Source of the DNA: a bacterium
GTDB taxonomy: Bacteria; Patescibacteriota; Minisyncoccia; Phycocordibacterales; Phycocordibacteraceae
DNA length: 64,000 bases
Direction: 5' to 3'
Assembly (NCBI GenBank): GCA_021849125.1
Contig: JAJZTG010000003.1
Location: 2,133 to 66,132 of the forward strand
In this document: piece after piece, positions 8,352 through 63,815 of the stretch
Numbering within the stretch: position 1 is the first letter of the stretch
Layout of the letters: every line of letters starts with the position of its first letter
Translations under genes and position numbers: made by a program
Notes under the pieces: model-generated
What the model was told of the DNA's origin: nothing
The model's input: only the letters and a program-made list of their open reading frames with translations
Database searches by the model: none

Positions 8352-8363
8352 GATCGAGAACCG

Positions 8364-10502: not shown

Positions 10503-10511
10503 AATAATTGT

Positions 10512-11612: not shown

Positions 11613-11615
11613 TCC

Positions 11616-12752: not shown

Positions 12753-12797
12753 CCTCCATTTCCTCACCCTGGTTATCCAAGGTATAGTGCGCTTAAT

Positions 12798-27522: not shown

Positions 27523-27531
27523 CCGTGGTAT
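27523..27531 (+). promoter_or_regulatory. extended -10 TGGTATAGT
   Basis: 11 nt upstream of the secA ATG. Confidence 0.4.
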
Positions 27532-27542
27532 AGTGCAAGTCC

Positions 27543-31038: not shown

Positions 31039-31062
31039 GGTCGGTTTTGAGCCCGCTTTTTG

Positions 31063-31078
31063 CTATACTGAAGGAGCT
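31063..31078 (+). promoter_or_regulatory. extended -10 TGCTATACT followed by SD GAAGGAG
   Basis: Immediately upstream of the gatB ATG at 31081. Confidence 0.5.
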
Positions 31079-32622: not shown

Positions 32623-33420
32623 ATGGATGAAATAATTATTGAAGAAAAGAAATACGTATCGTCTAAGCAAGCTGCAAAGATAACCGGCTATGCGAAAGAT
32701 TATGTAGGGCAACTATGCCGAGAAGGTCGTGTACCGGCTCGTCTCGTCGGGCGTAGTTGGTATGTGCTCGAGTCGGCTATCCAGGATCATCGTTTCGGAG
32801 CGCCTGAGCTATCGGAAGAAGCTTCTAATGAGCCGATTCCGGTCTCGGTAGAGACCCAGGTCATCTCGACTCGCTATGAAGCGGTGGAAACGCCTGTATT
32901 GCCTTCTATAAACCGCTTGCGTGAGGATGTTCCGAGTATGCAGGACCAGGGTGAAGATTCGGAGGATTCAAAATCGCAAGATCTCCGTGATGCCTGGAGC
33001 AATTGGTTTAATGAGCTTCCGGTAGAGGAAAAGTCTGAGGCTGCTACTGAAGCTCCTGAGCCGATAGCGCCAGCAGAAGAAACCTCTCAGGCTATGATGG
33101 AAGAGCTTGAGGAGCCTGCAGCGCCAGTTCCAGAGGAAGAGTCTACTCAAGAGTCTGTATCTATACACATTCTTGATCGTACGTATCGTCCTACACTTGA
33201 GACGCTTGCTCCTCAGCAAGAAGAGTACCCAGCAGCGCCTGTGCGGAAGGATACACAGAAGGGTGCCCCTACTATAAGCCGCGCCGTCCGTGCTTCAGCG
33301 GTCATCATAGCGGTGATTACCGTAGTGCTTGCGGCATTCGGTACAGGTTACTTCGATACATATCTAACCTCGAATAGCCAAGCAGCATACTTAGGAGGAA
33401 TATCTATTTACAATAAATAG
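32623..33420 (+). CDS. membrane-anchored protein with N-terminal excisionase-type HTH (HTH_17) domain, acidic linker and C-terminal TM helix
   Basis: SSKQAAKITGYAKDYVGQLCREGRVPARLVGRSWYVLESAIQDHR matches the HTH_17 pattern. An E/P-rich linker follows. TM helix AVIIAVITVVLAAFGTGYF near the C-terminus. Confidence 0.6.
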   Translation: MDEIIIEEKKYVSSKQAAKITGYAKDYVGQLCREGRVPARLVGRSWYVLESAIQDHRFGAPELSEEASNEPIPVSVETQVISTRYEAVETPVLPSINRLREDVPSMQDQGEDSEDSKSQDLRDAWSNWFNELPVEEKSEAATEAPEPIAPAEETSQAMMEELEEPAAPVPEEESTQESVSIHILDRTYRPTLETLAPQQEEYPAAPVRKDTQKGAPTISRAVRASAVIIAVITVVLAAFGTGYFDTYLTSNSQAAYLGGISIYNK

Positions 33421-43000: not shown

Positions 43001-43754
43001 CGGCTCCTTCCGCGTGGTGCTCTCCGACCCTCAGACGGGCGACGTCTCCTTCGACTACTTCCTCGTCCAGACGGAAGGCCAGATCGCGACCCCGACGGCA
43101 AGCGGCTATCAAGGCATCTCGCAATCGAGCGGGCCGGATACGGTCGCGCCGGTGATCACGCTCCTCGGCGATAACCCGGTGTACCTCTCGGTCGGTGGTA
43201 CTTTCACGGAGCCGGGGGTCACCGTGACCGATAACGCCGACGGCACGGATCCGTACAAGACCTACGTGAACGGTATCGAGCAGGCGGCGGACGCAGGGAC
43301 CATCGATACCTCGAGTCCGACGACTTACATCATCACCTACACCGCACGAGACGCGGCAGGAAATACGACCAGCGCGCACCGCTCGGTAATCGTCGGCAAT
43401 CCGGACGGTACGGTCTCGGCTGACAGCGGAAGTCCGACTTCCACAGACACGACCGCACCGGTCGTGACCCTGAACGGCTCTGCGGCGATGGAACTTGTCC
43501 AGAGCGGTACCTTCACCGACCCGGGCGCGACCGCCACTGACGATACCGATGGCGACCTCACTGCAAAGGTCGTGGAGACGGGCAGCGTGGATACTGCGAC
43601 GACAGGCCTCTACACGCTCACGTACTCGGCTACCGACGCGGCGGGGAACACGGGCAGCGTCTCGCGCGTCGTTTCGGTCGTCGCGCCGGCGGCGGCCACG
43701 ACGACCGAGACGACGGCCACTGGCGGCACGGCCTCCTCCACCCCGGCACAATAA
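34047..43754 (+). CDS. giant (3235 aa) membrane-anchored fibre/adhesin: N-terminal HTH_17 + TM, phage-tail-fibre-like NTTG 17-residue repeats, two Peptidase_S74 intramolecular-chaperone domains, two DUF5011 Ig-like domains
   Basis: One uninterrupted ORF. N-terminal TTKEASESSGYTSDYLARLVRSGEIEGRKIGHNWFVDRVSLEEFR (HTH_17). TM helix LVAFTAALAIVGGGAFVAQ at aa ~108-128. Repeats of xxNxAxGxxALYSNTTG. S74 motif TSDRKYKTDIKP...GFVAQDV (~41.9-42.25 kb). Second S74 STRTAKTDI...VANYRYK...LGFIAEEVQQVAPEI (~42.3-42.7 kb). DUF5011 motifs DTVAPVITLLGDNP and DTTAPVVTLNGSAAMEL...TDDTDGDLTAKV. Confidence 0.85.
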   Translation: MNSPLQNLVTTKEASESSGYTSDYLARLVRSGEIEGRKIGHNWFVDRVSLEEFRDKQRSRKLDRARELSDTRSREYHGNLQDAGAPARTVPKELIRKTALPAAEVSLAPVSFASHLVAFTAALAIVGGGAFVAQASVGIQAAGRVVAFAQEAADGFKIAFGDAPAQVAARFANVDTMMRTSADRVAMNAASAEAAYASLPLAQVTPATMRSFLVKGYETRQRAVFAQVPSYKTSTYDPIDWATFGHDTYAFVTSPSRIHDVLSNAYLSVGMSAYRGIESAFSAYEAFVNHAGQEMLVLGTATRDALVASPSKVSRAAVALGEAVQDLTHAAIRADVALAYGTAEAAPASARAVVAFLGSTGSTLANTTEQIPHAIADGYLAAAAWPATAGPQLASSVFGLEYQAAHRFVTFTDDLSSRYLAVVEGAGAFAYGATEHAKSAGSLLAVVPEWLTSDSLARTHIPQAVAAVVAAVPDLSAGQQAALTVYQTVSGFLGAAKHFIASLIPAPQNVAVQTPAPAVATTTERIITVPQNVTTYPTYTTVVRGASQEYVAQSISSLRAEVLATVANMIAPIAHQTATNITTIQQVNRIQDLSDLIVRNGDFRGGTFDNGRITNGISVSANTGTFTTLSGGSTSLATTTITGNLTLNGNQTISGSLTIGTTTITGPLSTSGTITGTYFVATSTTATSTLAGSLNIDSGGFVYATSTRNVGIGVLSPAALLAIQNSTSTQPIFTVKNAAGTEVYRITDSGFVGIGSTSPTYNLAVEGTSSLGNNAIAGYFTATSTTATSTFAGALAVGTTSPVAGALFTVGTSTPLLHISSNTGYIGIGTSSPAVALDLYATTAMRIPVGTTAQRPSGDVGYIRYNTTTHQFEGYGDNSVWQGLGGVINAAQTTYITAGTDDFLRFVTSSVERMTITAAGLVGIGSTSPTYNFSVEGTSSLGNNAIAGYFTATSTTASQFPYASTTALSAYNSLFAGSTATSTIAGDYNASSIRGALTVYGNTTSGSASSLTLQRGSTNGDNTLAFNDQTGSPLLKLYTSANTGYSYLTGYQSYLSLGTSLGGQVLRIDTSGNITTTANVIPSANQTYNLGSPAVYWNNAYINNIVANNLSSASTSIAGTNTSSFSIYSNNPTTDTQDISLIFYRGAGASSNGVLAWNSTLKRFDLNQNLHIVNDSTAPASTTLVVQGVSGQTGPLTSWLNSAGEYLATLTSSGSFGIGTSSPYASLSIAGSAGGTSSLFAISTSTAGYATTTALSVDRNGNLSLLNGASLTVSGTTSFSGSFSPNVGSNVLLSTNASGNIVATSSPTADYFTATSTTASQFPYASTTAITASGTGYFGSLGGAAFSSLTTNYLPKWGNGTFSNSLIFDNGTNVGIGTTSPSALLSIQNNVSTSSPVVSLFDSTGATSLELRASTSTLNNTFIGVNAGAVNTTGSANTVIGYGSFPVNTTGYSNVAVGFNTLFSNTTGYSNTALGINALYTNTSGYENVSVGRASLYSNTTGTWNSATGYRALYSNTTGVSNTANGWGALNKTTTGSYNSAIGDSSLYFNTTGASNVAVGAGSLYYNNAATSSVAIGRQAGRGTAAYANQGGVYVGYRSGYSAATGSDFNTFVGYTAGYNTTTGTYNIANGAYALYSNTTGNFNSALGVSVLYANTTGSYNVADGFNTLRYNTTGSYNVADGTNALFSNTTGANNVAEGASALYYNASATSSVAVGYAAASGAAAYANQGGVYVGYQSGYSAATGSDFNTFVGYTAGYNTTTGTYNIANGAYALYSNTTGNFNSALGVSVLYANTTGSYNVADGFNTLRYNTTGSYNVADGTNALFSNTTGANNVAEGASALYYNASATSSVAVGYAAASGAAAYANQGGTYLGYQSGYSAATGSDYNTLVGYQSGYGITTGSNNIWIGAATSSTAIANLTTGSQNILIGNNISLPSATASGQLNIGNIIFGTGITGTGSTVSTGNIGVGTAGPGAKLHIYDGGTGTSDSDLLRLQTTYGTNSAKKSISWYDTTNVTGQIDTRYDGTTVDMVFGSLYNTTDLYNSTARMVIKGNGNVGIGTTAPSAPLTIQNNVATSSPILSFLDSTGATSLEIRASTSTLLNTFIGTSAGAANTTGYYNTATGYGALYSNTTGYQNVANGIAALYANTSGYRNVATGGNALRYNTTGNNNVASGDAALFSNITGTSNVALGSTALYYNASATSTVAVGFNAAAGTAAYSNQGGVYVGYQAGYSAQTGSDYNTLVGYSAGHDVTTGTAEVALGANALLHTTTGNHNVAIGISALQSNTTGGANVAIGSSALQNDVSSGGSTAVGYQTLSANTTGANNVGLGYYALVNNKTGSNNVALGGNSLQSNITGSENTAVGLGALYYNASATSSVAIGRAAAQGTAAYSNQGGVYVGYLAGYSAQTGSDYNTFVGYTAGYNTTTGYWNVGNGYESLYSNTTGDQNIALGPKALRSNTTGRFNFAGGAYALYSNTTGTSNVAIGNQVAYFNSSATSTVAIGYYAAQGTAAYSNQGGVYVGYLAGYSAQTGSDYNTFVGYQSGYSDTVGFYNTASGYTALYSNAGGSYNNAYGSAALQNTTGSQNTAIGSGAGSGITSGSNNIAIGYNAQVPTPTASNQIRLGDANITYAGIQVSWTVTSDRKYKTDIKPVAFGLDFVNQLQPVDYLRVNDASGGREAGFVAQDVNQTLLSATSTAYGLISYDPTAAAYSLRYNDFIPILTRAVQQLDTKVNLIASSTASTTQIFVDTTGNVGIGTTSPNHTLTIAGDVGAIAFVNTSTRTAKTDISYVGESASDEMYDQLLKIKVANYRYKIEPTSDPLRLGFIAEEVQQVAPEILSPDGKGVDLYKLATFTLSGVQTLAGKVDAQGVRLASLEDRVAKLESGDVSVASGSPVSFSSASLASALSGFGVLIDKGIAQFNTLVFRTLVASSDADGTSSAGSVTILTGNTVAQVNNALVKPSTKIFVTFNAQLTGSWWVSDKADGSFRVVLSDPQTGDVSFDYFLVQTEGQIATPTASGYQGISQSSGPDTVAPVITLLGDNPVYLSVGGTFTEPGVTVTDNADGTDPYKTYVNGIEQAADAGTIDTSSPTTYIITYTARDAAGNTTSAHRSVIVGNPDGTVSADSGSPTSTDTTAPVVTLNGSAAMELVQSGTFTDPGATATDDTDGDLTAKVVETGSVDTATTGLYTLTYSATDAAGNTGSVSRVVSVVAPAAATTTETTATGGTASSTPAQ
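38811..39644 (+). repeat. near-identical 417-bp tandem duplication (2 copies, ~98.8% identity) inside the giant gene
   Basis: Units 38811..39227 and 39228..39644 differ at 5 positions. One of these is a CGG/CAG Arg/Gln change. A diverged third copy begins at 39645. Each unit encodes 139 aa ending ...AAYANQGGVYVGYQSGYSAATGSDFNTFVGY. Confidence 0.9.
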
Positions 43755-44618: not shown

Positions 44619-45372
44619 TTACCAAGGTCGGACCTTGGTAATTAACGGTCAGGACATGTCTTTCGCGTAATCGCGTGCATCCGCGAGCATCGTGTCGAAA
44701 GAGGGTCTCTCTTCAACAAGTTCTAGTATCGAGTCAGTATCAGTGACACCTCTAAAATCCGAACGGTCGCTTATATAATCATTAAGGCTTGAGAAAGGGT
44801 ATTCTTGCAATTTCATGCGGAGCATCTTCTCATCAGAGACAAGACCTTCTTTCCACTTCGGTTCGTATAATTCCGCAGGATTCGCGTGGATATAGTTCAC
44901 GACTCTGCGTAGATATGAGTCATCCGCAACATGCTTCGCTTTGAATTTTCCGGAAAAGAGCGCCCCGGTACGATCGTACTTTTTATTGAAATACATCGTA
45001 TAGCCAGTACCCAGCTTGCGCATGAATGCCGTGATACCGCCCTCAATACGCTCGCGGATAAGAAGATGGTAGTGGTTAGGCATGAGCGCGTAGGCACCGA
45101 GATCAACAAAGGCATCGTTACGCTCCAGTCCAATAACTTTCTCCAAGGTCGGACCTTGGTTAAGTTGTTCGCGGAATGTGCTTAGGTGGAGAGGGGAGCT
45201 GCTGTTTGAGACGTAGAGAAGCATTTGGAATCGTTCGTAATCGCGGCGGTCCATGAAGATCGTGCGCTTATCGACACCGCGGCTGTAGCAGTGGAACCAT
45301 TCGTCCGGGGCAAAGGCGATTGCGCGCTCCATGTGCATAGTTTACCAAGTTACCAAGGTCCGACCTTGGTTT
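44619..45372 (-). mobile_element. RAYT (REP-associated tyrosine transposase, IS200/Y1 HUH family) unit with flanking REP palindromes
   Basis: Transposase CDS 44649..45338 (minus strand). HUH motif NHYHLL and catalytic-Tyr region NYIHANPAE. Perfect palindrome TTACCAAGGTCGGACCTTGGTAA at 44619..44641. Related copies ACCAAGGTCCGACCTTGGT at 45349..45372 and CCAAGGTCGGACCTTGG at 45143..45159, the latter inside the CDS. Confidence 0.7.
44649..45338 (-). CDS. REP-associated tyrosine transposase (IS200-like TnpA, Y1 HUH)
   Basis: 229 aa. FMDRRDYERFQMLL ... AYALMPNHYHLLIRE ... YLRRVVNYIHANPAE. Confidence 0.75.
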   Translation of the reverse strand: MHMERAIAFAPDEWFHCYSRGVDKRTIFMDRRDYERFQMLLYVSNSSSPLHLSTFREQLNQGPTLEKVIGLERNDAFVDLGAYALMPNHYHLLIRERIEGGITAFMRKLGTGYTMYFNKKYDRTGALFSGKFKAKHVADDSYLRRVVNYIHANPAELYEPKWKEGLVSDEKMLRMKLQEYPFSSLNDYISDRSDFRGVTDTDSILELVEERPSFDTMLADARDYAKDMS

Positions 45373-51567: not shown

Positions 51568-51576
51568 ATGCTAAAA
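51568..51576 (+). promoter_or_regulatory. extended -10 TGCTAAAAT
   Basis: 7 nt upstream of the fba ATG. Confidence 0.4.
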
Positions 51577-51583
51577 TAGCGGC

Positions 51584-53257: not shown

Positions 53258-53266
53258 TGGTACACT
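53258..53266 (+). promoter_or_regulatory. extended -10 TGGTACACT
   Basis: 8 nt upstream of the ATG at 53275. Confidence 0.4.
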
Positions 53267-53274
53267 AACCGGAC

Positions 53275-54663
53275 ATGCGCCGGTTTTTTCTTTTTGTGCT
53301 CATAGGAATCATCGTCATGCCGTCTGCCGTTTTCGCGCAGAATGCTGCTCAGGCGGTATCGGCTCGCCAGCAAGCGTTGCAGAATCAGCTCTCCGCGATC
53401 GAAGGCCAGATCGCCGAACAGCAGAGGCTCCTTGATGTCGCACAGAACCAGCATCAGACGCTTCAATCGCAGATAGACGCTTTCAACGCCGAGATCAAGA
53501 AGACACAGCTCCAGATCCAGGCGATCAATCTCACCATCACCAAACTGAACGGCGATATCGACGTGCATGATAAGACGCTCACGCAGCTTTCCGCGCAGCT
53601 CGAAGCGGGGAAGGAGTCGCTCGCGCAGATCATGCGCCAGACGCAGATGCTCGATGACTACTCGATAGTCTCGGTGGCGCTCGGGTCAGAAGATGTGTCC
53701 GGTTTCTTCAGCGACCTTGACGCGTTCACGTCGATCAAGAGCTCGCTCGCAACTTCATTTTCTAGGATACGGCAAACCAGCGCTTCGACGGAGACGGAGA
53801 AACAAGCGCTTCAAGCGCGCCTTGCCGAGCAAGAACAGCTTCGAACCATCGCCCAGCTTGCAAAGCAGGCTGTGCAGAATCAGGAGGCCGAGAAACAGAA
53901 GCTTCTCAAACAAACCAAAGGCATCGAAGCGAACTACCAGAAGCTCATCGCGGGTAACCAGAAGACGGCGGCACAGATACGCTCCGAGCTCTTCATGCTG
54001 CGCGACACGGCGGCGATCCCGTTCGGTACCGCGCTTTCGTATGCGCAGGCTGCAGAACGCGCGACCGGCACGCGAGCTGCGGTGACTCTGGGAGTACTCA
54101 AGCAGGAGACCAATCTCGGTGAGAATGTGGGTACCGGTACGTGGCGAGCTGATATGTCACCGACGCGCGACCGTCCGGTCTTCGCCTACATCACGCAAAC
54201 GCTCGGACTCGACCCGGACAAGATGCCGGTCTCGAGGAAACCTTGGTACGGGTGGGGCGGCGCGATGGGCCCGGGACAGTTCATCCCGTCGACCTGGGCC
54301 TGCTACGGAGGGTTCGTAAACGTAAATACCGGCACCTGCACGCCGACTTCTTCGGTAGGCGGCAATGCTTTCTGGCAAGGGCCGTGGAAGTATGTCGCGA
54401 GCAAGGATCGTGTGCGCAAGCTTCTCGGCGCGAGCGTGCCGAGCAATCCGTGGGACGCGCGCGTCGCGATCATGGCGACCGCAATGCTCATGGCCGATAA
54501 TGGGGCGTCTGCACAGACGCCTGCAGCCGAGCGGCTTGCGGCGCTCCGTTATTTCGCCGGCTATGCGGGCGCGAAAAATCCCGCCTATGCCTTCTATGGC
54601 GACGGCGTGATGCAGTTCGCTTCGCAATTCCAACAGGACATAGACCAGTTGAGAGGGTACTAG
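53275..54663 (+). CDS. secreted coiled-coil protein with C-terminal MltB-like lytic transglycosylase domain
   Basis: Signal peptide MRRFFLFVLIGIIVMPSAVFA. Q/L-rich coiled coil. C-terminal GVLKQETNLG...WGGAMGPGQFIPSTW resembles the MltB AGAMGxxQFMPST motif. Confidence 0.55.
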   Translation: MRRFFLFVLIGIIVMPSAVFAQNAAQAVSARQQALQNQLSAIEGQIAEQQRLLDVAQNQHQTLQSQIDAFNAEIKKTQLQIQAINLTITKLNGDIDVHDKTLTQLSAQLEAGKESLAQIMRQTQMLDDYSIVSVALGSEDVSGFFSDLDAFTSIKSSLATSFSRIRQTSASTETEKQALQARLAEQEQLRTIAQLAKQAVQNQEAEKQKLLKQTKGIEANYQKLIAGNQKTAAQIRSELFMLRDTAAIPFGTALSYAQAAERATGTRAAVTLGVLKQETNLGENVGTGTWRADMSPTRDRPVFAYITQTLGLDPDKMPVSRKPWYGWGGAMGPGQFIPSTWACYGGFVNVNTGTCTPTSSVGGNAFWQGPWKYVASKDRVRKLLGASVPSNPWDARVAIMATAMLMADNGASAQTPAAERLAALRYFAGYAGAKNPAYAFYGDGVMQFASQFQQDIDQLRGY

Positions 54664-54736
54664 CGCTTTCCGGTGTCGGATTATCCCCATACGCGCGACC
54701 AAAGGTTGCGCGTAAGAGGGGTATACTGAACTCATT

Positions 54737-55492
54737 ATGATGACTACGCACACGAAGATCGCTTGGACAGGTATAGCAGCCATTATCATTCTTGCAGGGG
54801 GGTCCTATGTTTATTACCGACTTTCGCATAAGCCAGTAGCTCCGGGAAGCGTTTCGACTACGCAGCAGATCAAAGCCCCGCGCGTTTTCCTCGGGTCTAT
54901 CGCATCGGTCTCTACTGACGGATCGCAGGTTACGGTGCAGGGGTTGCCGGATACCAAAGACCCATTCACTCATGTGGCGATGATCCTCCCCTCGACGCAC
55001 ATTGAGAAGGTCGTCACTCAGACCGGTCTCGATGGGAAGCCTGAGAAGCAGCTGGTCGTCGAAGTCGATACGAGCGCACTTACGAAAGGGCAGAAGGTGA
55101 CCGTCGAGTATGCTGGCGATACTGAAAATGCTAGCCGCATCTCGTTCCTCGTCGAAAACAACATCGATGCGTACATCAAAGAGGCTTCTCAAGCAGAAGC
55201 AAGCCCCTACCTCAAGGGTCGTATCATCGCAGTCGATGCAGCTGCGAAGACGATCCGTTACTATCCGTACACCTTCGGCAAGGTCGAAACGAAAGAGATG
55301 ACCGTAGCGGTTCCTGATGGCGTAAAGATATACACAGTCGACGATCCGGTACGCATCGCGATCACGCACGCGTGGGTACCCGCAACGGCCGCTGCGCTCC
55401 AGGTGAACGCGACCTTCTTCATCGCGGCCGATCCAAAAGCGCTCAAGAACAGCAAAGTCGTCGCACAGGCGTTCATCGTTTCTCAGAAATAA
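54737..55492 (+). CDS. N-terminally membrane-anchored hypothetical protein
   Basis: TM helix IAWTGIAAIIILAGGSYVYY. -10 TATACT at 54721. Confidence 0.5.
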   Translation: MMTTHTKIAWTGIAAIIILAGGSYVYYRLSHKPVAPGSVSTTQQIKAPRVFLGSIASVSTDGSQVTVQGLPDTKDPFTHVAMILPSTHIEKVVTQTGLDGKPEKQLVVEVDTSALTKGQKVTVEYAGDTENASRISFLVENNIDAYIKEASQAEASPYLKGRIIAVDAAAKTIRYYPYTFGKVETKEMTVAVPDGVKIYTVDDPVRIAITHAWVPATAAALQVNATFFIAADPKALKNSKVVAQAFIVSQK

Positions 55493-55510
55493 CCGCTCTC
55501 ATCTAAGCGT

Positions 55511-56632
55511 ATGAAATCCCTCCGGCTCCAGGCAACAAAACTCTCTCTAGGATTCCTCGTGCTTGCAGGTGCGTTTGTGGGTTTTGCCGGTGTCGCGGAT
55601 GCAGCGACGACGACCTGTACGAATCAATGCGTTGGCGGGTATGAGACGCAGTCGTACTCTTGCGTAACCGATTCCGGTACGGCTTGTTCCAGTACAAGCT
55701 TCTATTGGGGTGGCGGTTGCGGGTATGGGGCGGGGACGTACGGTCCTGGTTGCTATCCATATACCTGCTACGGTACCTGCACCCAGCAGGTCTGGAACAG
55801 CTGCCTCTCGACGACGCAGGTGTGTACGACCACCTATGCTTCTTGTTCTGGCTCGGGGACCCTGAGCTGGGGAGCGGGATGTTCTGCCACAGGCTCTTAT
55901 TCCGCGCCTAACGGCGGTTCAGCAACCGCGGATAATTCAGCCTCAGGATATACAGGCTCAATAACCTATTCTTGTTCGGATGGCGCTTGGGTCGGACCCA
56001 CGAGTTCTTCCTGTACCTCTTGCACCTCAACCGGTACTTTTGATTGCGCTCCAGTTGCCGGAACGTACGGAGTTCCAGTCGGTGCGACCGGTACAGGCAC
56101 CTATTCGTACAATAGCTGTACCGGAGCGATTACGTACACGGGAGGCTGCACTGTGCCGGTGAAAGCCCCGACGTCCGCGTCGGTATCGGCTTCGCCGAAT
56201 CCCGCCTATCTTACGGGTACGGTAGGCATATCGTGGAGCGGCAATAATGCTCCGACGAGCTACAACGTGACAGTGGGCGGTACAACCTACCCGGTCGGTG
56301 CGCTCACTTCCTGGTCGGGACTCGTGACCGATCTTATCTCTACGATAGGTACCTATCCGCTTGGCGTTCAGGCTTGCAATACGGCAGGATGTGCAAGCGG
56401 TTCCGGCTCGCTTACGGTAAGCGGTCCGAAGATCAACACCTTCTCTGCAAGTACCGCGACGCTTCCGAAGGGTGGGGGTACCGTGACTCTTACCTGGGAT
56501 AGTGCGGGTGCGAAGACCTGCACGGCATCAAATGCGCTCGGTTCCGGTAACTGGTCCGGTCCGGTTTCGATCTCGGGTACCATGACCGTCTCGACGACTG
56601 ATACCAATACTTACTATTTGACGTGCAACTAA
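55511..56632 (+). CDS. secreted Cys/Gly/Thr-rich protein with Ig-like Trp-Cys domains
   Basis: Signal peptide ending ADA. About 30 Cys in the N-terminal half. C-terminal domains with the ISWSGNN...TGT and LTWDSAGAKTCTAS...TYYLTCN pattern. Confidence 0.55.
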   Translation: MKSLRLQATKLSLGFLVLAGAFVGFAGVADAATTTCTNQCVGGYETQSYSCVTDSGTACSSTSFYWGGGCGYGAGTYGPGCYPYTCYGTCTQQVWNSCLSTTQVCTTTYASCSGSGTLSWGAGCSATGSYSAPNGGSATADNSASGYTGSITYSCSDGAWVGPTSSSCTSCTSTGTFDCAPVAGTYGVPVGATGTGTYSYNSCTGAITYTGGCTVPVKAPTSASVSASPNPAYLTGTVGISWSGNNAPTSYNVTVGGTTYPVGALTSWSGLVTDLISTIGTYPLGVQACNTAGCASGSGSLTVSGPKINTFSASTATLPKGGGTVTLTWDSAGAKTCTASNALGSGNWSGPVSISGTMTVSTTDTNTYYLTCN

Positions 56633-57876
56633 ACAAACAAACATTCGTAAGCGTCGCAACGACAATACTTGCTGCCGGGGCATTTCTTGTGCCGCTTTCT
56701 GCAGGCGCACAACCTGCTGTACAACCTTTAGCAAGTGTTACGAACCTCCACATCATCGCGCAAGACTCACAGACACTCCAAATAGCTCTTGATGTTTCTG
56801 TGGGGGAAGGATCTACGCAGCAAGATCTTCAAGTCGGTCTCAAAGCCTTCGTGCAAGGCTCAAAGACCGCCGATACCGCTCTCGTTGAATCGACGGTCGA
56901 TGACTCGCTGTTCACTGTGTCGGCAAATAAGATTGTCCACCGGGATATCGCCTATGCTATCAGCGATCTTCCAGATGGGGATTACTATGTGCTTCCAGTC
57001 GTATATCGAAATGGCAACATAATCGCCGTTGGCAAACAGGTTCCTTTTACTGTTACCGGTTCGGAAAAGTCATTACTTATACTGCGCGATACCTGCATGC
57101 TCTTCACGAAGGATGGGTATGCGCACAGCCTGGGAGAAAATGTCCCGGTAGAAGCAGGGCAACCGCCACTGCTATCCTGTTCTGTCCGCAACATGTCTAA
57201 ATTGGCCGTCAGCGCTTTCCCTGTATTTTGGGCGCAGGAAGCTACATTTAACGGGAGGAATCTTGCGGTGGTCCAGCAAGACCTTCAGTACGTAAACTGG
57301 AATCCCGGAGAACAGAAAGCAGTACTTCTCAATACCCCACCGATAGGAGAATCGAAGCAATACGACACGTATGCCCTAACCGTGCATTTTTCCGGCCAGA
57401 AGGGAACTTCGGTTTCAGGGCCGATCCGTCTTTTGTATGGGATTAAAGGTGGGGAAGTCTCTGTCGCGCAGGCAGTTTTTGACAAGTCATCGTACATGAA
57501 AGGCGATACGATACGGGTGTCTGGAAATGTGCACGTAGATGGAGAAACGCCGCCAGAAGGAACATTTGCGGTTACTGCAGTTGTGCATAGTGCCGGAGAG
57601 ATCTGTGCTTCCTCGTCGTCTACCCCTCTTAAAGTAAGCAGACTATCCTCTCGGTTCAGCCTAACAGTTACAGCACAATCTGATTGTCAGAATCCCGAAG
57701 GTGCCGTGCTCATTACAGGGAACGGAAGAGTAACCGCGAGCGCGCCGATCAGTCTGACTGCGGGGTGGAGGAGTGACAGTTCGTTCACGGGTCGTATCTT
57801 GCTTGCGGCGGGGGTTGTCGCCGTTCTACTCCTCGTAGTATTTCGAAAGCGTATGATAATCAAGGAAAAAATATGA
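56623..57876 (+). CDS. secreted protein with C-terminal TM anchor (paralog of 58907 gene)
   Basis: Signal peptide ...LVPLSAGAQPA. C-terminal TM helix LLAAGVVAVLLLVVF then a basic tail. Shares DKSSYMKGDTIRVSGNV with the EKSRYERGDTAYVSLLW segment of the paralog. Confidence 0.55.
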   Translation: MQLNKQTFVSVATTILAAGAFLVPLSAGAQPAVQPLASVTNLHIIAQDSQTLQIALDVSVGEGSTQQDLQVGLKAFVQGSKTADTALVESTVDDSLFTVSANKIVHRDIAYAISDLPDGDYYVLPVVYRNGNIIAVGKQVPFTVTGSEKSLLILRDTCMLFTKDGYAHSLGENVPVEAGQPPLLSCSVRNMSKLAVSAFPVFWAQEATFNGRNLAVVQQDLQYVNWNPGEQKAVLLNTPPIGESKQYDTYALTVHFSGQKGTSVSGPIRLLYGIKGGEVSVAQAVFDKSSYMKGDTIRVSGNVHVDGETPPEGTFAVTAVVHSAGEICASSSSTPLKVSRLSSRFSLTVTAQSDCQNPEGAVLITGNGRVTASAPISLTAGWRSDSSFTGRILLAAGVVAVLLLVVFRKRMIIKEKI

Positions 57877-58838
57877 AAACAACCCTTCAAACAGGACTCG
57901 CTCTCGTTCTTCTAGGAGTGTTCCTGGTATCAGCTCCTGCGGCGTATGCGGTTGCACCAGCGGCTACGCTTACGGGCCCAGATATTACCAGCCCTATTGC
58001 ACCTGGGACTCCGATCATCCTACTTGGTCAATGCACGAATACGACGAGTGCTTACCTTAGTAACTATGGAAGCCTTACGCTTACTTCCGGAGGAGGATTC
58101 AGCGCAGGTGTCGTCCCGCAGATTACGACGACTTACACGCTTACCTGTACCGGATCGGATGGGACAGCAACGGCAAGTTTTACAGTGCCGGTCGCAAGTT
58201 CTACATCCCAGCCGACCGCCGCAATGACTGTTCCGAGCGCACCGATTGATGCAAGTAATAGCGCGGTCTCCATATCTTGGCAGTGCACGAACTCGACAGC
58301 AGCTTTCATTACGAATGTCGGGGCAGTCTCTCTCTCGGGCCAACAGACTGTTGCGATAACTCCTCCTCAGACATTCACGCTCACCTGCACGGGTTCGGGG
58401 GGGACTGCCACGGCAAGCGGGACAGTGTACCCATGGCCGACGAGTTCCTCGGGAGTGACGAATCCGTCTATCGCGTTTGACGTGTCGCCCTCGACCATAA
58501 GTCCTGGGCAAAGTATTTCGGTCACGTGGGCCTGCTCCAATGCAACGAGCGCTTTGGTGAATGGTTCGGGGCTCGGTAGCGGCTGGACAAGTCTGAACGG
58601 GTCCACGACTGTACAACCGACAGTTTCGGTCGGAGATGTCCTTTTCTACCATGCTGGCTGCTACGCAACGAATCCGCAGACAGGAGGGACACTTTCGGCG
58701 CTTGATAATCGGTATGTGTACGTTGTCGCTCCCACGGTAACACCTCCGCCGAGTACACCAGGGTCGGTCACCTCCTCGATCACCGTCACGGTCTCGAAGC
58801 AGAAGCCCGGCATCAACCTCTACTTCACCTCGCCATAG
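57873..58838 (+). CDS. secreted Ig-like repeat protein ending in conserved tail TVTVSKQKPGINLYFTSP
   Basis: Signal peptide ...APAAYA. Repeated ISWQCTN.T...TFTLTCTGSGGTATASGTV domains. C-terminal 18 aa identical to those of the 60172 gene. Confidence 0.6.
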   Translation: MKTTLQTGLALVLLGVFLVSAPAAYAVAPAATLTGPDITSPIAPGTPIILLGQCTNTTSAYLSNYGSLTLTSGGGFSAGVVPQITTTYTLTCTGSDGTATASFTVPVASSTSQPTAAMTVPSAPIDASNSAVSISWQCTNSTAAFITNVGAVSLSGQQTVAITPPQTFTLTCTGSGGTATASGTVYPWPTSSSGVTNPSIAFDVSPSTISPGQSISVTWACSNATSALVNGSGLGSGWTSLNGSTTVQPTVSVGDVLFYHAGCYATNPQTGGTLSALDNRYVYVVAPTVTPPPSTPGSVTSSITVTVSKQKPGINLYFTSP

Positions 58839-58906
58839 GGAACAATTCGCGCTTTTGTTGATAATCGTTTCGGGAGTTTTTTAAAATCGGAGTATACTTC
58901 AGGTAT

Positions 58907-60175
58907 ATGAAATCCCGGCTCCTCATAACTTTCATTCTCGCCCTCTTACCGCTTTCGGCAGGGGCGCAGACGGCACAAGTCATCGCGGACGTTTCGCTGC
59001 AAGACTGTTCGTACACGCAAACGGGCGGACAGTTCGGCGTAAGCTGCTCGATAACCAACCGCTTTAAGGATCAGGGCGATATTCGCTATGCGGTTGAGCT
59101 CTTGAAGCGTACGGCGAGTTCGACAGTCGAAGTGGCGGACATGAAGGTTTATGATCCCGTCCTCTCACTCCGAGCTGAAGAAACCGTTTCCATCAAAGCA
59201 GACTACACGGCACCCGCATTCTTCTCGGGGAAGTATGAGCTCTGGATCGTCTCGAAGACCTCAGACGGTCTTGGGCTTTCTTCGCAGCAGCTCGGTACTG
59301 TTTCGCTCAAAGCGACCGATGTTTCGTATCTGGAAGTGAAGGACTGTGTTTTGTATGTCGCAGGAGAACCGGCTGCAAAGACGTATGTGCTTGGTCAGGG
59401 CGTAGATATAAATCCGGACGAGATTCTTGAGGGTTCTTGCACGGTTACTGCGCATACGACACAGGATATGTCTGTAACGCCTTCCTTTGCCACGCATGCG
59501 CAGAGCGTTTTCGGTACAGTGGTGCCTGAAGCGAGCGGTGCGCAGCCGGCAATTTCTTTCAAGAGAGGGGAGACAAAGACGTACGCGTTTACGGTTCCGA
59601 AATCCGTGACGCCGCAGGCGTACGATGCTCTGCTTACTTTCAGAGCAGGCGATGCAGCGCTCTCAAGCCCGATCGATATCCGTTATATCGTGCGCGGTCC
59701 GAGCGCGGTCATTCAGAGTGTTCTTCTCGAAAAGAGCCGCTACGAACGGGGAGACACCGCCTACGTCTCACTTTTGTGGAGCGGCTCGACGATTCTCGGC
59801 GGTGGGGTGCGCAAAGGGCCGCTCGCCGACACGGTTGCAAAGGTCGCTCTGTCGCTGAGCGACGAAAACGGTACAGCGTGCGCGGATGACACGACCTTCA
59901 CCATCGCAGCGAACGCGCCGGAACGTCACCAACTCACCGCCTATCCACTCAAGGTGAACCGTTTCTGTCTGAGTCCTCGTGTGACCGTAAAGTTCCTCGA
60001 CGCCTCAGGAGCAACACTTACGGAAAAGACGATCGCATTCGAGGGCGAACGTCTTGCCGGCGATGCGTTCCGCGTATTCCTTAGTGCCTACGGATGGTAC
60101 ATCGTCGCTGGCCTCATCGTCATCCTTGCGCTTGTCGGGGGTATACTTAAGAATCGTAAGTCCATAGCGGTATGA
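58907..60175 (+). CDS. secreted protein with C-terminal TM anchor (paralog of 56623 gene)
   Basis: Signal peptide ...LLPLSAGAQTA. C-terminal TM helix WYIVAGLIVILALVGGIL then KNRK. -10 TATACT at 58893. Confidence 0.55.
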   Translation: MKSRLLITFILALLPLSAGAQTAQVIADVSLQDCSYTQTGGQFGVSCSITNRFKDQGDIRYAVELLKRTASSTVEVADMKVYDPVLSLRAEETVSIKADYTAPAFFSGKYELWIVSKTSDGLGLSSQQLGTVSLKATDVSYLEVKDCVLYVAGEPAAKTYVLGQGVDINPDEILEGSCTVTAHTTQDMSVTPSFATHAQSVFGTVVPEASGAQPAISFKRGETKTYAFTVPKSVTPQAYDALLTFRAGDAALSSPIDIRYIVRGPSAVIQSVLLEKSRYERGDTAYVSLLWSGSTILGGGVRKGPLADTVAKVALSLSDENGTACADDTTFTIAANAPERHQLTAYPLKVNRFCLSPRVTVKFLDASGATLTEKTIAFEGERLAGDAFRVFLSAYGWYIVAGLIVILALVGGILKNRKSIAV

Positions 60176-60975
60176 AATCAAAACTCTCTCTCCTCGTCGG
60201 GTTTCTAGTCTTCGTTTCGGCGGCTCCGCTAGCTCACGCAACAACTTTTTCGGTCCCGTATACGTACCAACTTGATTATCTGGGTACTGGAGTTCTGCAA
60301 ACGTACAATACGAGTTTCGTGTTCGAAGCAAGTCTCGATAAGCAGGTGTATACACCTGGTGAGCGTATCTGGACACGCACCAACGTGATTAGTACGGGGA
60401 GCCCAAAAACGGGACAGAATTGGACTCAGAATATTCCGCCCTATGTGTTCCAAGATCGGTGTGGTGATCTAAGTCAGTCAACATCTGTTGTTTATGATTC
60501 AGGGTATCCGCCATTTATCGCAGGAGTAAAGGCAACCAATGTCTCGATGATATACCCTCTGTGCTCTCAAGTACTTACGCTCGACCATGTCATGGGTGCT
60601 AGTTGGGAAGGATATTATCCGAGTCTGTGGTTGTATGCTGAATCGTACGCAACGACCAATAGTATCAAGCTTTTTGCTGGTCTTGGTCCAAGCTCTATTT
60701 CCATGACGGAAGTAGGTAGTCTTCCATACTGCGTTTCCACCACTGGTTCATGTCCAGGTAGTACCCAAGGATGCGCCACGACCAAGGGCCAGGCATGCAC
60801 CTCGGCTCCAAACGCCTGTGGGGAAAGTACGACCGGCACTATCGCTTGCGACGGCTCCTGTAGTGCCATAACACCTGCAAACACGTGTCCGAATCCTGGA
60901 GGAGTCACGTCTTCTGTTACGGTCACCGTCTCGAAGCAGAAGCCGGGTATCAATCTCTATTTCACTTCGCCGTAG
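60172..60975 (+). CDS. secreted protein ending in conserved tail TVTVSKQKPGINLYFTSP
   Basis: Signal peptide ...APLAHA. Cys-rich C-terminal part. The final 18 aa are identical to those of the 57873 gene. The nucleotide sequences are only ~80% identical, so the protein sequence is under selection. Confidence 0.6.
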   Translation: MKSKLSLLVGFLVFVSAAPLAHATTFSVPYTYQLDYLGTGVLQTYNTSFVFEASLDKQVYTPGERIWTRTNVISTGSPKTGQNWTQNIPPYVFQDRCGDLSQSTSVVYDSGYPPFIAGVKATNVSMIYPLCSQVLTLDHVMGASWEGYYPSLWLYAESYATTNSIKLFAGLGPSSISMTEVGSLPYCVSTTGSCPGSTQGCATTKGQACTSAPNACGESTTGTIACDGSCSAITPANTCPNPGGVTSSVTVTVSKQKPGINLYFTSP

Positions 60976-60998
60976 GTTTCCACAAGACAGGGAAGAGA

Positions 60999-61040
60999 AA
61001 CGAAAAGAACAAGGTCAGACCTTGTTCTTTTCGTTTTTGT
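60999..61040 (+). terminator. rho-independent terminator (19-bp perfect stem)
   Basis: AAACGAAAAGAACAAGGTC-A-GACCTTGTTCTTTTCGTTT followed by TTG. The stem core AAGGTCAGACCTT resembles the REP core. Confidence 0.75.
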
Positions 61041-61064
61041 GGAAGTCCGACTTTCACATCTGAA
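61041..61064. repeat. REP-like imperfect palindrome GGAAGTCCGACTTTCACATCTG
   Basis: Shares 20 bp (AAGTCCGACTTTCACATCTG) with the palindrome at 8364..8398. Confidence 0.55.
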
Positions 61065-61112
61065 CGAAGAAAGCGTAACCCCGGAAGTCTTGGTTCTTGG
61101 GGAAAGGGGCTT

Positions 61113-61142
61113 GACAAAAATGCTACTATTGTAGTAGTATTT
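61113..61142 (+). promoter_or_regulatory. sigma70-like promoter TTGACA-18-TAGTAT
   Basis: TTGACAAAAATGCTACTATTGTAGTAGTAT. About 100-nt leader with AAAGGGAG 8 nt before the ATG at 61240. Confidence 0.45.
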
Positions 61143-61239
61143 ATCACAGGAAAGCGTGCAAATAGGCCCTAAAAGCCTTTGAGCGCGCGCCAAAAGTTCT
61201 CTGAAACCAACGCCCGAAGGGGCAGAAAGGGAGTTCATC

Positions 61240-62217
61240 ATGAACGCCAAAATCTTTGCCACCTTGGTGGCGATTGTCATGTCAATCGGCATCTTGCCCG
61301 CAAAGGCTGGTGTCGAGCTCAATCAAGTATCCACGGCGGGCATCTCTGTAAAGATCACTCCGCTTGCAAGCGAGAGTGGTACACAGAAGGTCTACATGGG
61401 TGCTTTCTTACCCGTTACGCCTGGTTCGGTGGATGGCAAGTGGTATCTGCGCGACACAGCTGGTAACTGGCTCTTCTATCAAGGGGGTCCGTTGCCGGTG
61501 GCGCTCAATATGCCTCTGCCTCCTCCATCGAACACCCCGTACTATGTAGCTTCGATTGCCGATATCGACATTTCGGCACTCGAAGGCTTGCAGGTGTGGG
61601 TCGCCTACGGCGCGTCGGAACAAGCCGCGCTTGCCGATGCCCAGCACGTGCAGAAGATCTATACCGTGCCGAGCAAGAAAGTCCTGCATTATACGGAAAA
61701 GGTGTATGCGCTATGGCCTGGGTACCCTGCTGCAGTGACTCAAAGCGGTGTAGCGAAGGTGACGAACCTTACGCCGTACACCACAGGCGCTCTCCCGCTC
61801 TTCAATTGCTGGATGGCTGAAAAGCCGCTTGCGGACGGCAAGGTGCTCGTCAATTGCCAGGACGCGGTGACGCTCAATCGCCACCTGTTGTACTTGGATC
61901 CGACCATCGATGCGCTCTATGAGTACGAAACGGCACCTCAAGTGTGGGATCCGACCGTCATCAACGGCAAGACCTGCGGCTGGTGCAGCATCGTCAATTA
62001 TCCGGCAGGCACGGTCTGGCAGGACTTTGGCAATCACAACCCCGCCAATCCCGCTTCTTGGGGTATGGAGGTGCGCGTGTCAGGCGGCTGGTACTTTACC
62101 AGCACCAATCGGCTGACCCTCAGCTTCCAACCCGACCAAGGTGGCGCAACAGTCATCAAGGCTGCGGATTATTCGACTGAGGGTACTTTCCACCTCCTGA
62201 TGACCTACTCGAACTGA
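61240..62217 (+). CDS. secreted hypothetical protein
   Basis: Signal peptide MNAKIFATLVAIVMSIGILPAKA. 325 aa with no recognisable motif. Confidence 0.5.
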   Translation: MNAKIFATLVAIVMSIGILPAKAGVELNQVSTAGISVKITPLASESGTQKVYMGAFLPVTPGSVDGKWYLRDTAGNWLFYQGGPLPVALNMPLPPPSNTPYYVASIADIDISALEGLQVWVAYGASEQAALADAQHVQKIYTVPSKKVLHYTEKVYALWPGYPAAVTQSGVAKVTNLTPYTTGALPLFNCWMAEKPLADGKVLVNCQDAVTLNRHLLYLDPTIDALYEYETAPQVWDPTVINGKTCGWCSIVNYPAGTVWQDFGNHNPANPASWGMEVRVSGGWYFTSTNRLTLSFQPDQGGATVIKAADYSTEGTFHLLMTYSN

Positions 62218-62304
62218 GCTAGCGTCTGCGGTCGTACAGAGCCTATCAACACTACGGTGTTCGATAGGCTCTTTTCTTTTACGCTTGGGTATATACTTGA
62301 ATAC

Positions 62305-63162
62305 ATGAATCTACGCACTATTTCCTTGAGCGTGCTCGCCCTGCTTTTTGTCGCTGGGATGTTTTCATACCACACGGATTCAGTTTCAGCAGGAGTATCG
62401 GTCACTGTGCCGCAAGGGAGTCCAGTGACGCTCCACTGGGTAATGACTGGCGGCGTAACTAGCTGTCAGGGCGATACCGACTACACCGATGCATCTATTG
62501 CGAATACATGGGTGTCTACTATCCATCGTGATGCCGATGTCCCATTTTCATTTACAGCAAATGAGGGGACCGGCACTTACCATTTTTCTTGTACAGACCC
62601 AATTACCGGAGGCACGAATGACGCGACAACACTCACCATCGTCGCGCCGTGTGGAGCAGGGACAGTCTGGAATGGTGCAACGTGCGTGCCTTCGGCACCG
62701 GCAGCCGGAACGCCTGGGGGAACACCATCAGCGGCGTGTACGCTCCCGTGGGGTGGCGTTATACAGAGCGGCGAGTCGGTTACGGCGTACCAGACCTCTT
62801 CGGTCGCTTCGCCAGCAACTTGCCAAGTACCCACAGCAGAGACGCGCACCTGTTTGAGCGGTGTCTTAAGCGGCAGCTATCAGTACCAGACCTGTACGGT
62901 GCAGGGTGGCCCTGCAACGGCATCCATAAGCGCTAGTCCGACCCGCGTCCGCTCTGGCGCCTCCTCGACCATCACCTGGAACGCCTCCGGCGTGACGAGC
63001 TGTACGGTCTCGGGACCGGGCCTCTCGGCAAGCACGAAAACCGGTTCGCAGCCAGTCACCATCACCCAGCAGTCGCTCTACACCCTCACGTGCCAGACGA
63101 GCGGCAACCCGGTCACCCAGACCGCGATCGTGAACGTCGTCCCGGGCTTCCAAGAATTCTAG
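62305..63162 (+). CDS. secreted Ig-like repeat protein (same Trp-Cys domain family as 55511/57873)
   Basis: Signal peptide MNLRTISLSVLALLFVAGMFSYHTDSVSA. Domains VTLHWVMTGGVTSCQGD...TYHFSCTD and ITWNASGVTSCTVSG...SLYTLTCQTSG. -10 TATACT at 62292. Confidence 0.55.
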   Translation: MNLRTISLSVLALLFVAGMFSYHTDSVSAGVSVTVPQGSPVTLHWVMTGGVTSCQGDTDYTDASIANTWVSTIHRDADVPFSFTANEGTGTYHFSCTDPITGGTNDATTLTIVAPCGAGTVWNGATCVPSAPAAGTPGGTPSAACTLPWGGVIQSGESVTAYQTSSVASPATCQVPTAETRTCLSGVLSGSYQYQTCTVQGGPATASISASPTRVRSGASSTITWNASGVTSCTVSGPGLSASTKTGSQPVTITQQSLYTLTCQTSGNPVTQTAIVNVVPGFQEF

Positions 63163-63314: not shown

Positions 63315-63815
63315 TTAGGCCGTCCGTGCGACCAGTTCCACGTAATCACAACGCACGCAGCTGATCGAGCTTGCTTTCAGCTTGCCTTGCTTTGCCAAAT
63401 GAACCCAGTGCTTGAGTTCTGGATGGAGAAGGTCGCCGTAAGTTGTCTGCAGAAGATCGATCGTGTATTCGATGCTGCCGCGCTTTTCTGCCTCTGCCGC
63501 CAGTTTAGAATCCAACGGGTTGTGATTGATGAATTTGCCGACGTGTTGGTTGCAAAAAGACGCGTAGTACTCGGTATTCAACACAAAGGCATGGAAAGCC
63601 CTGTCAACCGGACCGTGGAACATGACATAAGGTTTGTCATGTCGAGAGTGATTGGCGACAAGGAACCACTGCAGGAACGCCTCAACGAGTATCCTCGCCC
63701 GGGTTTCTGATTTGACCCAGCGCTCGCGCATCATGGTCATGATGATCGGCTGGAAGTCAGAGCTGTTCACTACCGTTTCCCACTTCTTCAGCGGGATGGA
63801 ATCAACGATATCCAT
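63315..63815 (-). CDS. hypothetical protein (lower-GC gene with canonical SD)
   Basis: 166 aa with no recognisable motif. Preceded on its own strand by AGGAGG plus a 6-nt spacer. GC content is visibly lower than the rest of the window. Confidence 0.4.
   Translation of the reverse strand: MDIVDSIPLKKWETVVNSSDFQPIIMTMMRERWVKSETRARILVEAFLQWFLVANHSRHDKPYVMFHGPVDRAFHAFVLNTEYYASFCNQHVGKFINHNPLDSKLAAEAEKRGSIEYTIDLLQTTYGDLLHPELKHWVHLAKQGKLKASSISCVRCDYVELVARTA

Follow-up and report, generated by a model that had tools for sequence, protein, structure and literature searches.

The 64,000-nucleotide stretch of bacterial DNA analysed here (the window) carries, between positions 53275 and 63162, nine plus-strand open reading frames (ORFs), g1 to g9, which an earlier reading of the same letters (the original prediction) had described as a single operon-like array resembling a dedicated surface-appendage or adhesin module. 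The nine genes and their three overlaps were found as that prediction had given them, and the best overall explanation, which we favour on balance, is that the locus consists of a conserved gene, g1, followed by a hypervariable slot that houses two anchor-partner cassettes for surface display, g4-g5 and g6-g7. The first gene, g1 (53275-54663), encodes a secreted protein with an EnvC/CwlO-like coiled coil and an MltB/SltB-like lytic transglycosylase domain, and belongs to the chromosomal backbone. It is followed by g2 (54737-55492), an apparently lineage-specific gene for 251 amino acids with an uncleaved N-terminal transmembrane (TM) helix, and by g3 (55511-56632), whose secreted product has 22 cysteines and is made of a Cys-rich N-terminal half and two immunoglobulin-like (Ig-like) repeats. 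The first anchor copy, g4 (56623-57876), is a divergent member of its family and has as its partner the secreted product of g5 (57873-58838), with three Ig-like repeats, a Pro/Thr linker and a 26-residue tail, while the second copy, g6 (58907-60175), is a typical member and is paired with the secreted product of g7 (60172-60975), which combines a macroglobulin-like β-sandwich, a Cys-rich segment and again a 26-residue tail. The secreted 325-residue protein of g8 (61240-62217) is probably encoded in a transcription unit of its own, and the array closes with g9 (62305-63162), the secreted product of which contains an Ig-like repeat, a Cys-rich domain with a CxLPWGG motif, a terminal Ig-like repeat and the tail VVPGFQEF. 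Genes g3 and g4 overlap by 10 nucleotides at 56623, and g4/g5 and g6/g7 by four nucleotides each (ATGA) at 57873 and 60172, respectively.

By sequence rules, classical signal peptides are predicted for eight of the nine products; the earlier statement that every product has one is not established for g2, and it holds for g9 only when translation is counted from 62305. The N-terminal TM helix of g2 is uncleaved and is followed by more positive charge than precedes it, which leaves the topology of the protein ambiguous. The start of g9 is likewise ambiguous (62257, 62305 or 62407): the public gene call at 62407 yields 251 amino acids without a signal peptide, while the start at 62305 yields a good signal peptide and has a −10-like box 7 nucleotides upstream. 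Four of the genes could be compared with a co-occurring strain variant (L002), found on a separate contig of the European Nucleotide Archive assembly that holds the window DNA, in which the order g3 to g6 is kept; the ratios of nonsynonymous to synonymous divergence (dN/dS) are 0.08 for g3, 0.26 for g4, 0.16 for g5 and 0.19 for g6. Because these ratios are low and were obtained against a variant with the same gene order, g3 to g6 are real genes, and they evolve under purifying selection. Scans of all nine products, and of the long-form relatives described below, against Pfam and NCBIfam returned no match at curated cut-offs, and none of the Ig-like, Big, CARDB and PKD models of Pfam reached its gathering threshold on g2 to g9.

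Insight into the organization of the locus comes from the comparison with related genomes. Homologs of g1 are numerous (3162 detected), the best 120 being 75-100% identical and all from Paceibacteria, Kaiserbacteria or Minisyncoccia, and in the relatives' loci examined the g1 homolog always lies directly after the gene for L25, within the order GAPDH, RpiB, Rpe, TktN, TktC, PfkB (minus strand), aldolase, L25, g1, slot, L31, RF1, S2 and EF-Ts. The window derives from a Parcubacteria genome of the Paceibacteria/Kaiserbacteria-like type, and its flanking genes have their best homologs in metagenome-assembled genomes of these groups. Since g1 is kept at 80-84% identity while the genes downstream of it differ completely, it lies outside any nine-gene module: it is a conserved housekeeping gene of a syntenic backbone and not a part of the variable array. 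The expectation that the nine genes would be conserved together in relatives thus failed for the array as a whole, as the neighbours of g1 are entirely different at this level of g1 identity.

What follows g1 is highly variable: at one extreme the interval is nearly empty, and at the other it spans some 10 kb coding for secreted proteins that are unrelated to each other's counterparts. In the window, where g1 is by definition 100% identical, the slot holds g2 to g9, two minus-strand genes and a 65-residue ORF; in the relatives L003 and L022 (g1 84% identical) it holds nine unrelated genes (PQQ, DsbA-like, rhodanese, TPR and CARDB), in L005 (82%) a single CARDB protein of 1046 amino acids, in L007 (80%) more than 10 kb of other hypothetical genes, in L024 (81%) four genes, and in L023 (81%) only a fragment of AbiEii. 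In a Yonathbacteria genome (L013, g1 45%) the slot is empty and g1 abuts L31, the cassette being located elsewhere. Genes g2 to g9 are thus the local content of a hypervariable slot bordered by g1 and rpmE. Across the array the G+C content is 0.52-0.55, as against about 0.58-0.60 in the flanks. The scans of the window for tRNA genes and Rfam families gave no matches and, because the tRNA scan is empty, there is no tRNA-linked island boundary. Two minus-strand genes between g9 and rpmE, a UCP032817-like gene at 63315-63815 and a GNAT acetyltransferase gene (L001 8226-8648), are additional, non-secreted occupants of the slot.

At the centre of the array stand g4 and g6, for which the original prediction of paralogous proteins with near-identical PLSAGAQ signal-peptide ends and C-terminal TM helices was borne out: the two are related over their full length, at 23% identity (E=1e-9, composition-adjusted). 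The product of g4 is predicted to consist of a signal peptide, a β-sandwich ectodomain of about 350 residues, a C-terminal TM helix and a short basic tail. With g4 and with an alignment of 28 family sequences as queries, a word-indexed homolog search gave nothing beyond the proteins of the window and a single strain variant, whereas HMMER, run exhaustively with a profile of g4 and g6, matched the whole module of about 400 residues in 1249 representative clusters (at 50% identity), 997 of them at E≤1e-10, and in hundreds of proteins the profile is spanned from about position 30 to about position 410. The g6 product is 38-46% identical to homologs in loci of Kaiserbacteria and other Patescibacteria but only 23% identical to g4. 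Yonathbacteria, Campbellbacteria and Kaiserbacteria are the sources of the named members, every one of which is annotated as 'hypothetical', no Pfam or NCBIfam model covers the family, and other members are located among unrelated housekeeping genes. An AlphaFold2 model of g6 built from the 28 family sequences (pLDDT 88.7, pTM 0.81) shows three tandem β-sandwich domains (residues 29-134, 141-262 and 267-377) followed by the TM helix, and the two cysteine pairs, formed by C147, C178, C325 and C354, are invariant in the 28 sequences. The full architecture, that is a signal peptide, a three-domain ectodomain of about 370 residues, two cysteine pairs, a TM helix and a short basic tail, was thus found. 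Foldseek searches with the g6 model return generic tandem Ig, fibronectin type III and macroglobulin-type folds only (RbmA, macroglobulin (MG) domains of A2M/C3, transglutaminase C-domains). With respect to the α-2-macroglobulin proteins, the resemblance of the array products is limited to the fold of single domains, and there is neither a thioester (CxEQ) nor any A2M match in Pfam. Judging from the profile searches, g4 and g6 belong to a large and undescribed anchor family of Parcubacteria.

The relation between anchor and partner emerges from the way in which the family is encoded elsewhere. Among its best 149 members, only 28 are short, like g4 and g6, and 121 are long, reaching 600-1900 amino acids. 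In 119 of these 121 long forms, a second hydrophobic segment follows 25-40 residues past the anchor TM helix and leads into extracellular Ig-like and Cys-rich domains; in the contig DNA, the long forms are uninterrupted ORFs. When a profile of the 190 residues that come after the second helix in the 119 proteins was run against the 527 ORFs of the window, g7 was the top match (E=3.9e-5), the alignment beginning at the signal-peptidase site of g7 and including a LDKxxYxPGE motif. The alanine at position −1 of that site (A23 of g7) is invariant in g7 and 20 long-form segments. Conversely, in all six independent loci with a short form, a partner bearing a signal peptide lies directly downstream of the anchor: the junctions comprise a 4-nucleotide overlap (L010), two 14-nucleotide overlaps (L017, L019), an 8-nucleotide gap (L009), a 77-nucleotide gap (L018) and, in L011, a short gap after which the N-terminal region of the partner is broken by a stop. 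Furthermore, g3, g5, g7 and g9 all have domains in common with the extracellular parts of long forms, g9 at 45-50% identity over its last 145 residues or so. The AlphaFold2 model of g7 is a β-sandwich (pLDDT 59.6), for which the best, although weak, fold match is an MG domain of α-2-macroglobulin. Since relatives carry the two components as a single polypeptide, g4-g5 and g6-g7 are genuinely linked, and on this comparative evidence they appear as two old and diverged copies of one cassette that most relatives encode as a single hairpin protein. These architectural conclusions are ones we hold with considerable confidence. A further arrangement is seen in Candidatus Yonathbacteria (GCA_013335575.1, L013 8001-14110), where a family member (P0124) has two complete anchor modules in tandem, each with its TM helix; genes for two secreted TSP1-repeat proteins come next, the group being positioned between RF1 and S2 and not after g1.

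A second connection between the two cassettes, which like the pairing of anchor with partner is absent from the original prediction, is found at the extreme C-termini of the partners. The tail of g5, PGSVTSSITVTVSKQKPGINLYFTSP (58758-58835, plus strand), is identical in 24 of 26 positions to that of g7, PGGVTSSVTVTVSKQKPGINLYFTSP (60895-60972, plus strand), and this common 26-residue peptide (...VTVTVSKQKPGINLYFTSP) joins two proteins that are otherwise unrelated. At the DNA level the synonymous sites of the two tails are saturated (proportion of synonymous differences, pS, 0.70) while the nonsynonymous divergence (dN) is 0.055, and because of this the shared tail has to be regarded as old and strongly selected. 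A recent duplication or gene conversion of the tail was considered and rejected, given a pS of 0.70 alongside a peptide that is identical at 24 of 26 residues. The phenomenon extends beyond this pair, with g9 ending in VNVVPGFQEF (63139-63162), and the ending P-x-F/Y-x-E-F occurs in slot or partner proteins of L003, L005, L007, L010 (two proteins), L012, L013, L019 and L024 (two proteins). More generally, VN(V/I)xPx(F/Y)x(E)F-COOH is a recurrent ending of the secreted Ig-domain proteins in Paceibacteria, while many long forms end instead in NW(K/R)EVxP; the pattern aromatic-K/R-E-V-x-P closes 50 of the 121 long forms and P-x-aromatic-x-E-F another 17 of the 121, and in the g1 family, taken as a control, 4 of 120 proteins match a looser version of the tail pattern. 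No TM segment follows the tails, no signal of the LPXTG type is found in them and no NCBIfam model matches them. In being short conserved motifs common to unrelated secreted proteins of one genome they recall C-terminal sorting signals such as LPXTG, PEP-CTERM and PGF-CTERM, from which they differ in that the known signals comprise a hydrophobic helix and a basic cluster, whereas P-x-F/Y-x-E-F, aromatic-K/R-E-V-x-P and KPGINLYFTSP themselves end the protein. Our leading idea is that the tail could act as a docking or retention strand.

The Trp/Cys repeats of about 80-90 residues that had been noticed in g3, g5 and g9 are confirmed by an alignment of 14 repeats, relatives included, in which a tryptophan is near-invariant and the cysteine of the T(L)TC motif is invariant. 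The assignment as Ig-like domains is made because the repeat profile matches a solved 'Immunoglobulin-like domain protein' in the Protein Data Bank (PDB; 9ncf_S, E=1.2e-4), a phage tail protein scoring less well, and because the predicted folds agree. The product of g3 ends at the TLTC motif of its last repeat, and its Cys-rich part matches extracellular regions of long forms and slot proteins of L024. Slot and partner proteins of relatives are commonly built of Ig-like repeats together with CARDB and TSP1 domains, and in those proteins the Pfam thresholds of CARDB and TSP_1 are reached. The last 143-147 residues of g9 are 45-61% identical to the C-termini of long forms and of slot proteins in relatives, and g9 is of the recurrent, slot-resident type of protein. 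For g2 and g8 no match was obtained in Pfam, NCBIfam or the PDB sequences and no homolog in any of the related loci compared; g2 also shows no relationship to the gene found next to g1 on its downstream side in L003.

We have also analysed the signals that may govern transcription of the array. Directly 3' of g7 lies an intrinsic terminator-like hairpin (60994-61040, plus strand) with a 20-bp stem, its 3' arm and the downstream flank forming a U-tract; with a predicted folding energy of −27 kcal/mol (z=−5.55), its stability is not equalled by any of 200 shuffled sequences. Upstream of g8 there is a σ70-like promoter candidate, TTGACA-18-TAGTAT (61111-61140, plus strand), and the gene is preceded by a GGGAG Shine-Dalgarno-like sequence. 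The −10-like box GGTATACT (54720-54727, plus strand) is placed 9 nucleotides before the start codon of g2, and similar boxes are found on the plus strand before g1 (53259-53266), g6 (about 58890-58897) and g9 (about 62289-62297), such that boxes of the form G-x-TA-x-ACT stand 7-9 nucleotides before the start codons of g1, g2, g6 and g9. From these signals, the predicted transcription units would be g1, g2-g5, g6-g7, g8 and g9, and the claim of a single operon-like array is not upheld, with a terminator after g7 and promoter-like sites before g1, g2, g6, g8 and g9. Beyond the array, extended −10-like boxes, (T)G[GC]TA[TA]A[CAG]T, occur 6-11 nucleotides before many start codons of the window that have no Shine-Dalgarno sequence, examples being 2086-2093, 3908-3916, 5192-5199, 10498-10505, 27526-27534, 31062-31069, 51570-51577, 53259-53266 and 54720-54727. 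The recurrence of these boxes so close to the start codons points to a frequent use of leaderless mRNAs in this genome, an exception being g8 with its GGGAG sequence and −35/−10 pair.

In respect to the product of g1, the original prediction of a coiled coil combined with an MltB-like murein hydrolase proved sound. Searched as a profile against the PDB, the C-terminal domain finds structures of the SltB/MltB type (5o8x, 4anr, 1ltm and 1d0k, E=4e-4 to 1e-3), and the catalytic E-x-x-x-G motif, glutamate included, and the GAMG-x-QF-x-PS motif align with them, the Pfam model SLT_2 remaining below threshold with 12.2 bits against a gathering cut-off of 24.3. The N-terminal half is a coiled coil with a weak similarity to EnvC (NCBIfam E=1.4e-6; PDB EnvC E=0.16) that is also below curated cut-offs, and homologs carry the JGI label 'peptidoglycan hydrolase CwlO-like'. 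The protein is organized in the same manner as the FtsEX-type coiled-coil hydrolases and activators (EnvC, PcsB, CwlO, RipC), in that a signal peptide and a long coiled coil in the N-terminal part precede a domain for peptidoglycan cleavage at the C-terminus, but this last domain is of the LytM, CHAP or NlpC/P60 type in those proteins and of the MltB/SltB type in g1; no ftsEX genes were found among the window ORFs scanned. Compared with MltB/SltB proteins (Pfam SLT_2), on the other hand, g1 adds the N-terminal coiled coil and an insertion of about 30 residues with two cysteines. The product would hence be a Sec-exported cell-wall enzyme, an EnvC/CwlO-like coiled coil carrying an MltB-like lytic transglycosylase. 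Over the start codon of g1, 25 nucleotides past the L25 stop, lies a terminator-like hairpin with a T-run (53267-53285; AACCGGACATGCGCCGGTT TTTTCTTTTT), and this element may stop rplY transcripts while at the same time coding for the N-terminus of g1.

Taken as a whole, these results suggest the following scheme for the cassettes. The first gene would encode a type-I membrane anchor, with a cleaved signal peptide, a three-domain β-sandwich stalk, a TM helix and a short basic tail, and the second, translationally coupled to it, a secreted partner with a signal peptide of its own. The fused forms would instead adopt a TM hairpin in which the second helix keeps the alanine at position −1 of the signal-peptidase site, and they are probably cut by signal peptidase at this internal site, so that both gene layouts would give an anchor and a co-exported ectodomain in a 1:1 ratio. 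The partner would be held on the surface non-covalently by the anchor or by the wall, an association in which the constrained C-terminal tail may have a role, and would present binding domains of variable type, by which the cell could attach to a host or to another surface. A function in sortase-independent surface display or adhesion is thus proposed, and we see the chances for and against it as evenly balanced. A more far-reaching version, which we find rather unlikely, is that the tails serve Parcubacteria as a signal for docking or sorting that is new and independent of sortase, a terminal strand tethering ectodomains to the three-domain anchor or to the wall, and that fused and split forms are two encodings of one two-chain display system, produced from the fused form by internal signal-peptidase cleavage.

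The earlier description of the products as surface or adhesin proteins is in this way partly retained, in that they are mostly secreted or anchored β-sandwich, Ig-like and Cys-rich proteins and that g4-g5 and g6-g7 are linked, and it is given up as far as a dedicated module of nine genes is concerned. Compared with fibrillar and stalk adhesins built from tandem Ig-like, CARDB and macroglobulin-like domains, the products of g3 to g7 and g9 are alike in being Sec-exported, tandem β-sandwich, mosaic, variable and Cys-rich proteins, with TSP1-like modules, and unlike in their anchoring, which in those adhesins relies on LPXTG and sortase, on an autotransporter or on a type I secretion system, and here on a C-terminal TM helix placed on a separate or hairpin-linked polypeptide. 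What is unusual at this locus is the two-chain architecture in hairpin and split form, and the C-terminal tails are undescribed; surface β-sandwich display or adhesin proteins are as such of a known kind. No C-terminal LPXTG followed by a hydrophobic helix and basic residues is present in g1 to g9, no sortase, usher, pilin or secretion ATPase was found in the region or among another 29 ORFs, each 220 amino acids or longer and located upstream of 49000, that were scanned with Pfam, and no exosortase was seen nearby. The N_methyl motif of type IV prepilins gives no match in g1 to g9, and N_methyl genes do occur elsewhere in the backbone of the relative L007.

A number of observations weigh against this interpretation. 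The fold matches of g6 are generic, with TM-scores of 0.15-0.28 for the whole model, and the g7 model is confident only in part, its tail and Cys-rich part being unmodelled. The g4-g5 pair fits the cassette less well than g6-g7, since g5 is devoid of the conserved first partner domain found in g7 and in the long forms and fits the role of partner by its position and Ig-like content only. The interaction between anchor and partner and the internal cleavage are both points that we infer, and the promoter and terminator calls are predictions from sequence only. The taxonomic range of the family depends on few named members, and g2 and g8, having no detectable relatives, are left outside the explanation.

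It is also necessary to consider whether the nine genes could after all form one dedicated appendage or adhesin operon, in which the murein hydrolase opens the wall for a fibre assembled from the Ig-like proteins. All of them lie on the same strand with short gaps and three overlaps, in one distant Kaiserbacterium (L010) the g1 homolog has a g6-like pair as its immediate downstream neighbour, and lytic transglycosylases do go together with pili, flagella and secretion systems elsewhere among bacteria. Nevertheless, g1 is 80-84% identical in relatives whose downstream genes are different or nearly absent, in Yonathbacteria it is directly followed by L31 while the cassette lies elsewhere, and other members of the anchor family are dispersed among unrelated housekeeping genes; with a strong terminator after g7, separate promoter-like elements inside the array and no assembly ATPase, usher, sortase or pilin found, we regard a single appendage operon as very improbable. 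An origin as a mobile-element or prophage remnant, with Ig-like proteins derived from phage tail or decoration proteins, would account for the weaker solved match of the repeat profile to a phage tail protein, for the behaviour of the slot as an insertion hot spot (in one relative, L023, an AbiEii fragment is found there) and for the drop in G+C content across the array. It is contradicted by the lack of any integrase, terminase, capsid or other phage gene in or beside the array, of a nearby tRNA gene and of visible flanking attachment-site repeats, by the location of the named anchor-family members in Parcubacteria genomes between housekeeping genes, and by purifying selection together with the order g3 to g6 being kept in the co-occurring strain. 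A phage origin was rejected on the ground that no phage genes are present, and the remnant hypothesis as a whole strikes us as barely credible.

A more serious competitor concerns the role of the cassettes rather than their origin, as anchor and partner could be structural parts of the envelope, forming for instance a coat of the S-layer type or a scaffold across the wall, and not adhesins or proteins of host interaction. The rigid-looking three-domain stalk with its TM anchor would suit such a role, as would the wide distribution of the family under purifying selection, the 1:1 stoichiometry that either fusion or translational coupling would yield, and the presence of matrix or scaffold proteins, for example RbmA, among the best structural matches. 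A core component of the envelope is, however, expected to be conserved in position and sequence, whereas gene content and copy number vary greatly among close relatives, and the extracellular parts are mosaics of binding-type domains (TSP1, CARDB, Ig-like). We therefore judge a purely structural role improbable and retain surface display by two anchor-partner cassettes, set in a hypervariable slot behind a conserved g1, as the preferred explanation.

Some further features of the window deserve mention. Upstream of the backbone, a plus-strand ORF at 34047-43754 encodes 3235 amino acids with an N-terminal helix-turn-helix (HTH)-like segment, Peptidase_S74 (intramolecular chaperone) domains and Bact_surface_Ig-like domains; a gene for a small HTH_17 protein (32623-33420, plus strand) precedes it, and in one relative a protein of 4484 amino acids occupies the equivalent position. 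An IS200-like Y1 transposase gene (44649-45338, minus strand) is found between this surface-protein gene and that of GAPDH, and Y1_Tnp genes also occur near the same backbone in L003 and beside an anchor-family member in L014. At the other end of the window, the ORF of a VirD4/TraG-like coupling protein (5207-7087, plus strand) overlaps the longest-frame start of a PKD-domain ORF (6825-8351, plus strand), and both have Mur ligase genes as neighbours, along with a large cluster of glycosyltransferase genes at 8299-17804.

For Parcubacteria an episymbiotic way of life has been proposed, and their candidate proteins for attachment are diverse (PMC4508563), with which the attachment role suggested here would be in line. 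In the literature on their adhesion proteins only general statements were found. These organisms are abundant, uncultivated and probably episymbiotic, and how they attach to partners and display proteins on their surface is largely unknown. In this context, the results correct the attractive but unsupported idea that a murein hydrolase forms part of an appendage operon, and a family of about 1250 clusters in which anchor and partner occur both fused and split provides a natural 'Rosetta stone' link between the two halves. The strongly constrained tails may be a surface-retention signal, no signal of the sortase type having been found in these proteins. The lineages differ in the sets of secreted or anchored mosaic proteins that occupy the slot, composed of Ig-like, CARDB, macroglobulin-like and Cys-rich domains, and the rapid turnover of its content would mirror the adaptation of surface specificity; being precisely bounded by two housekeeping genes, the slot could mark specialisation at the level of the strain or of the host.

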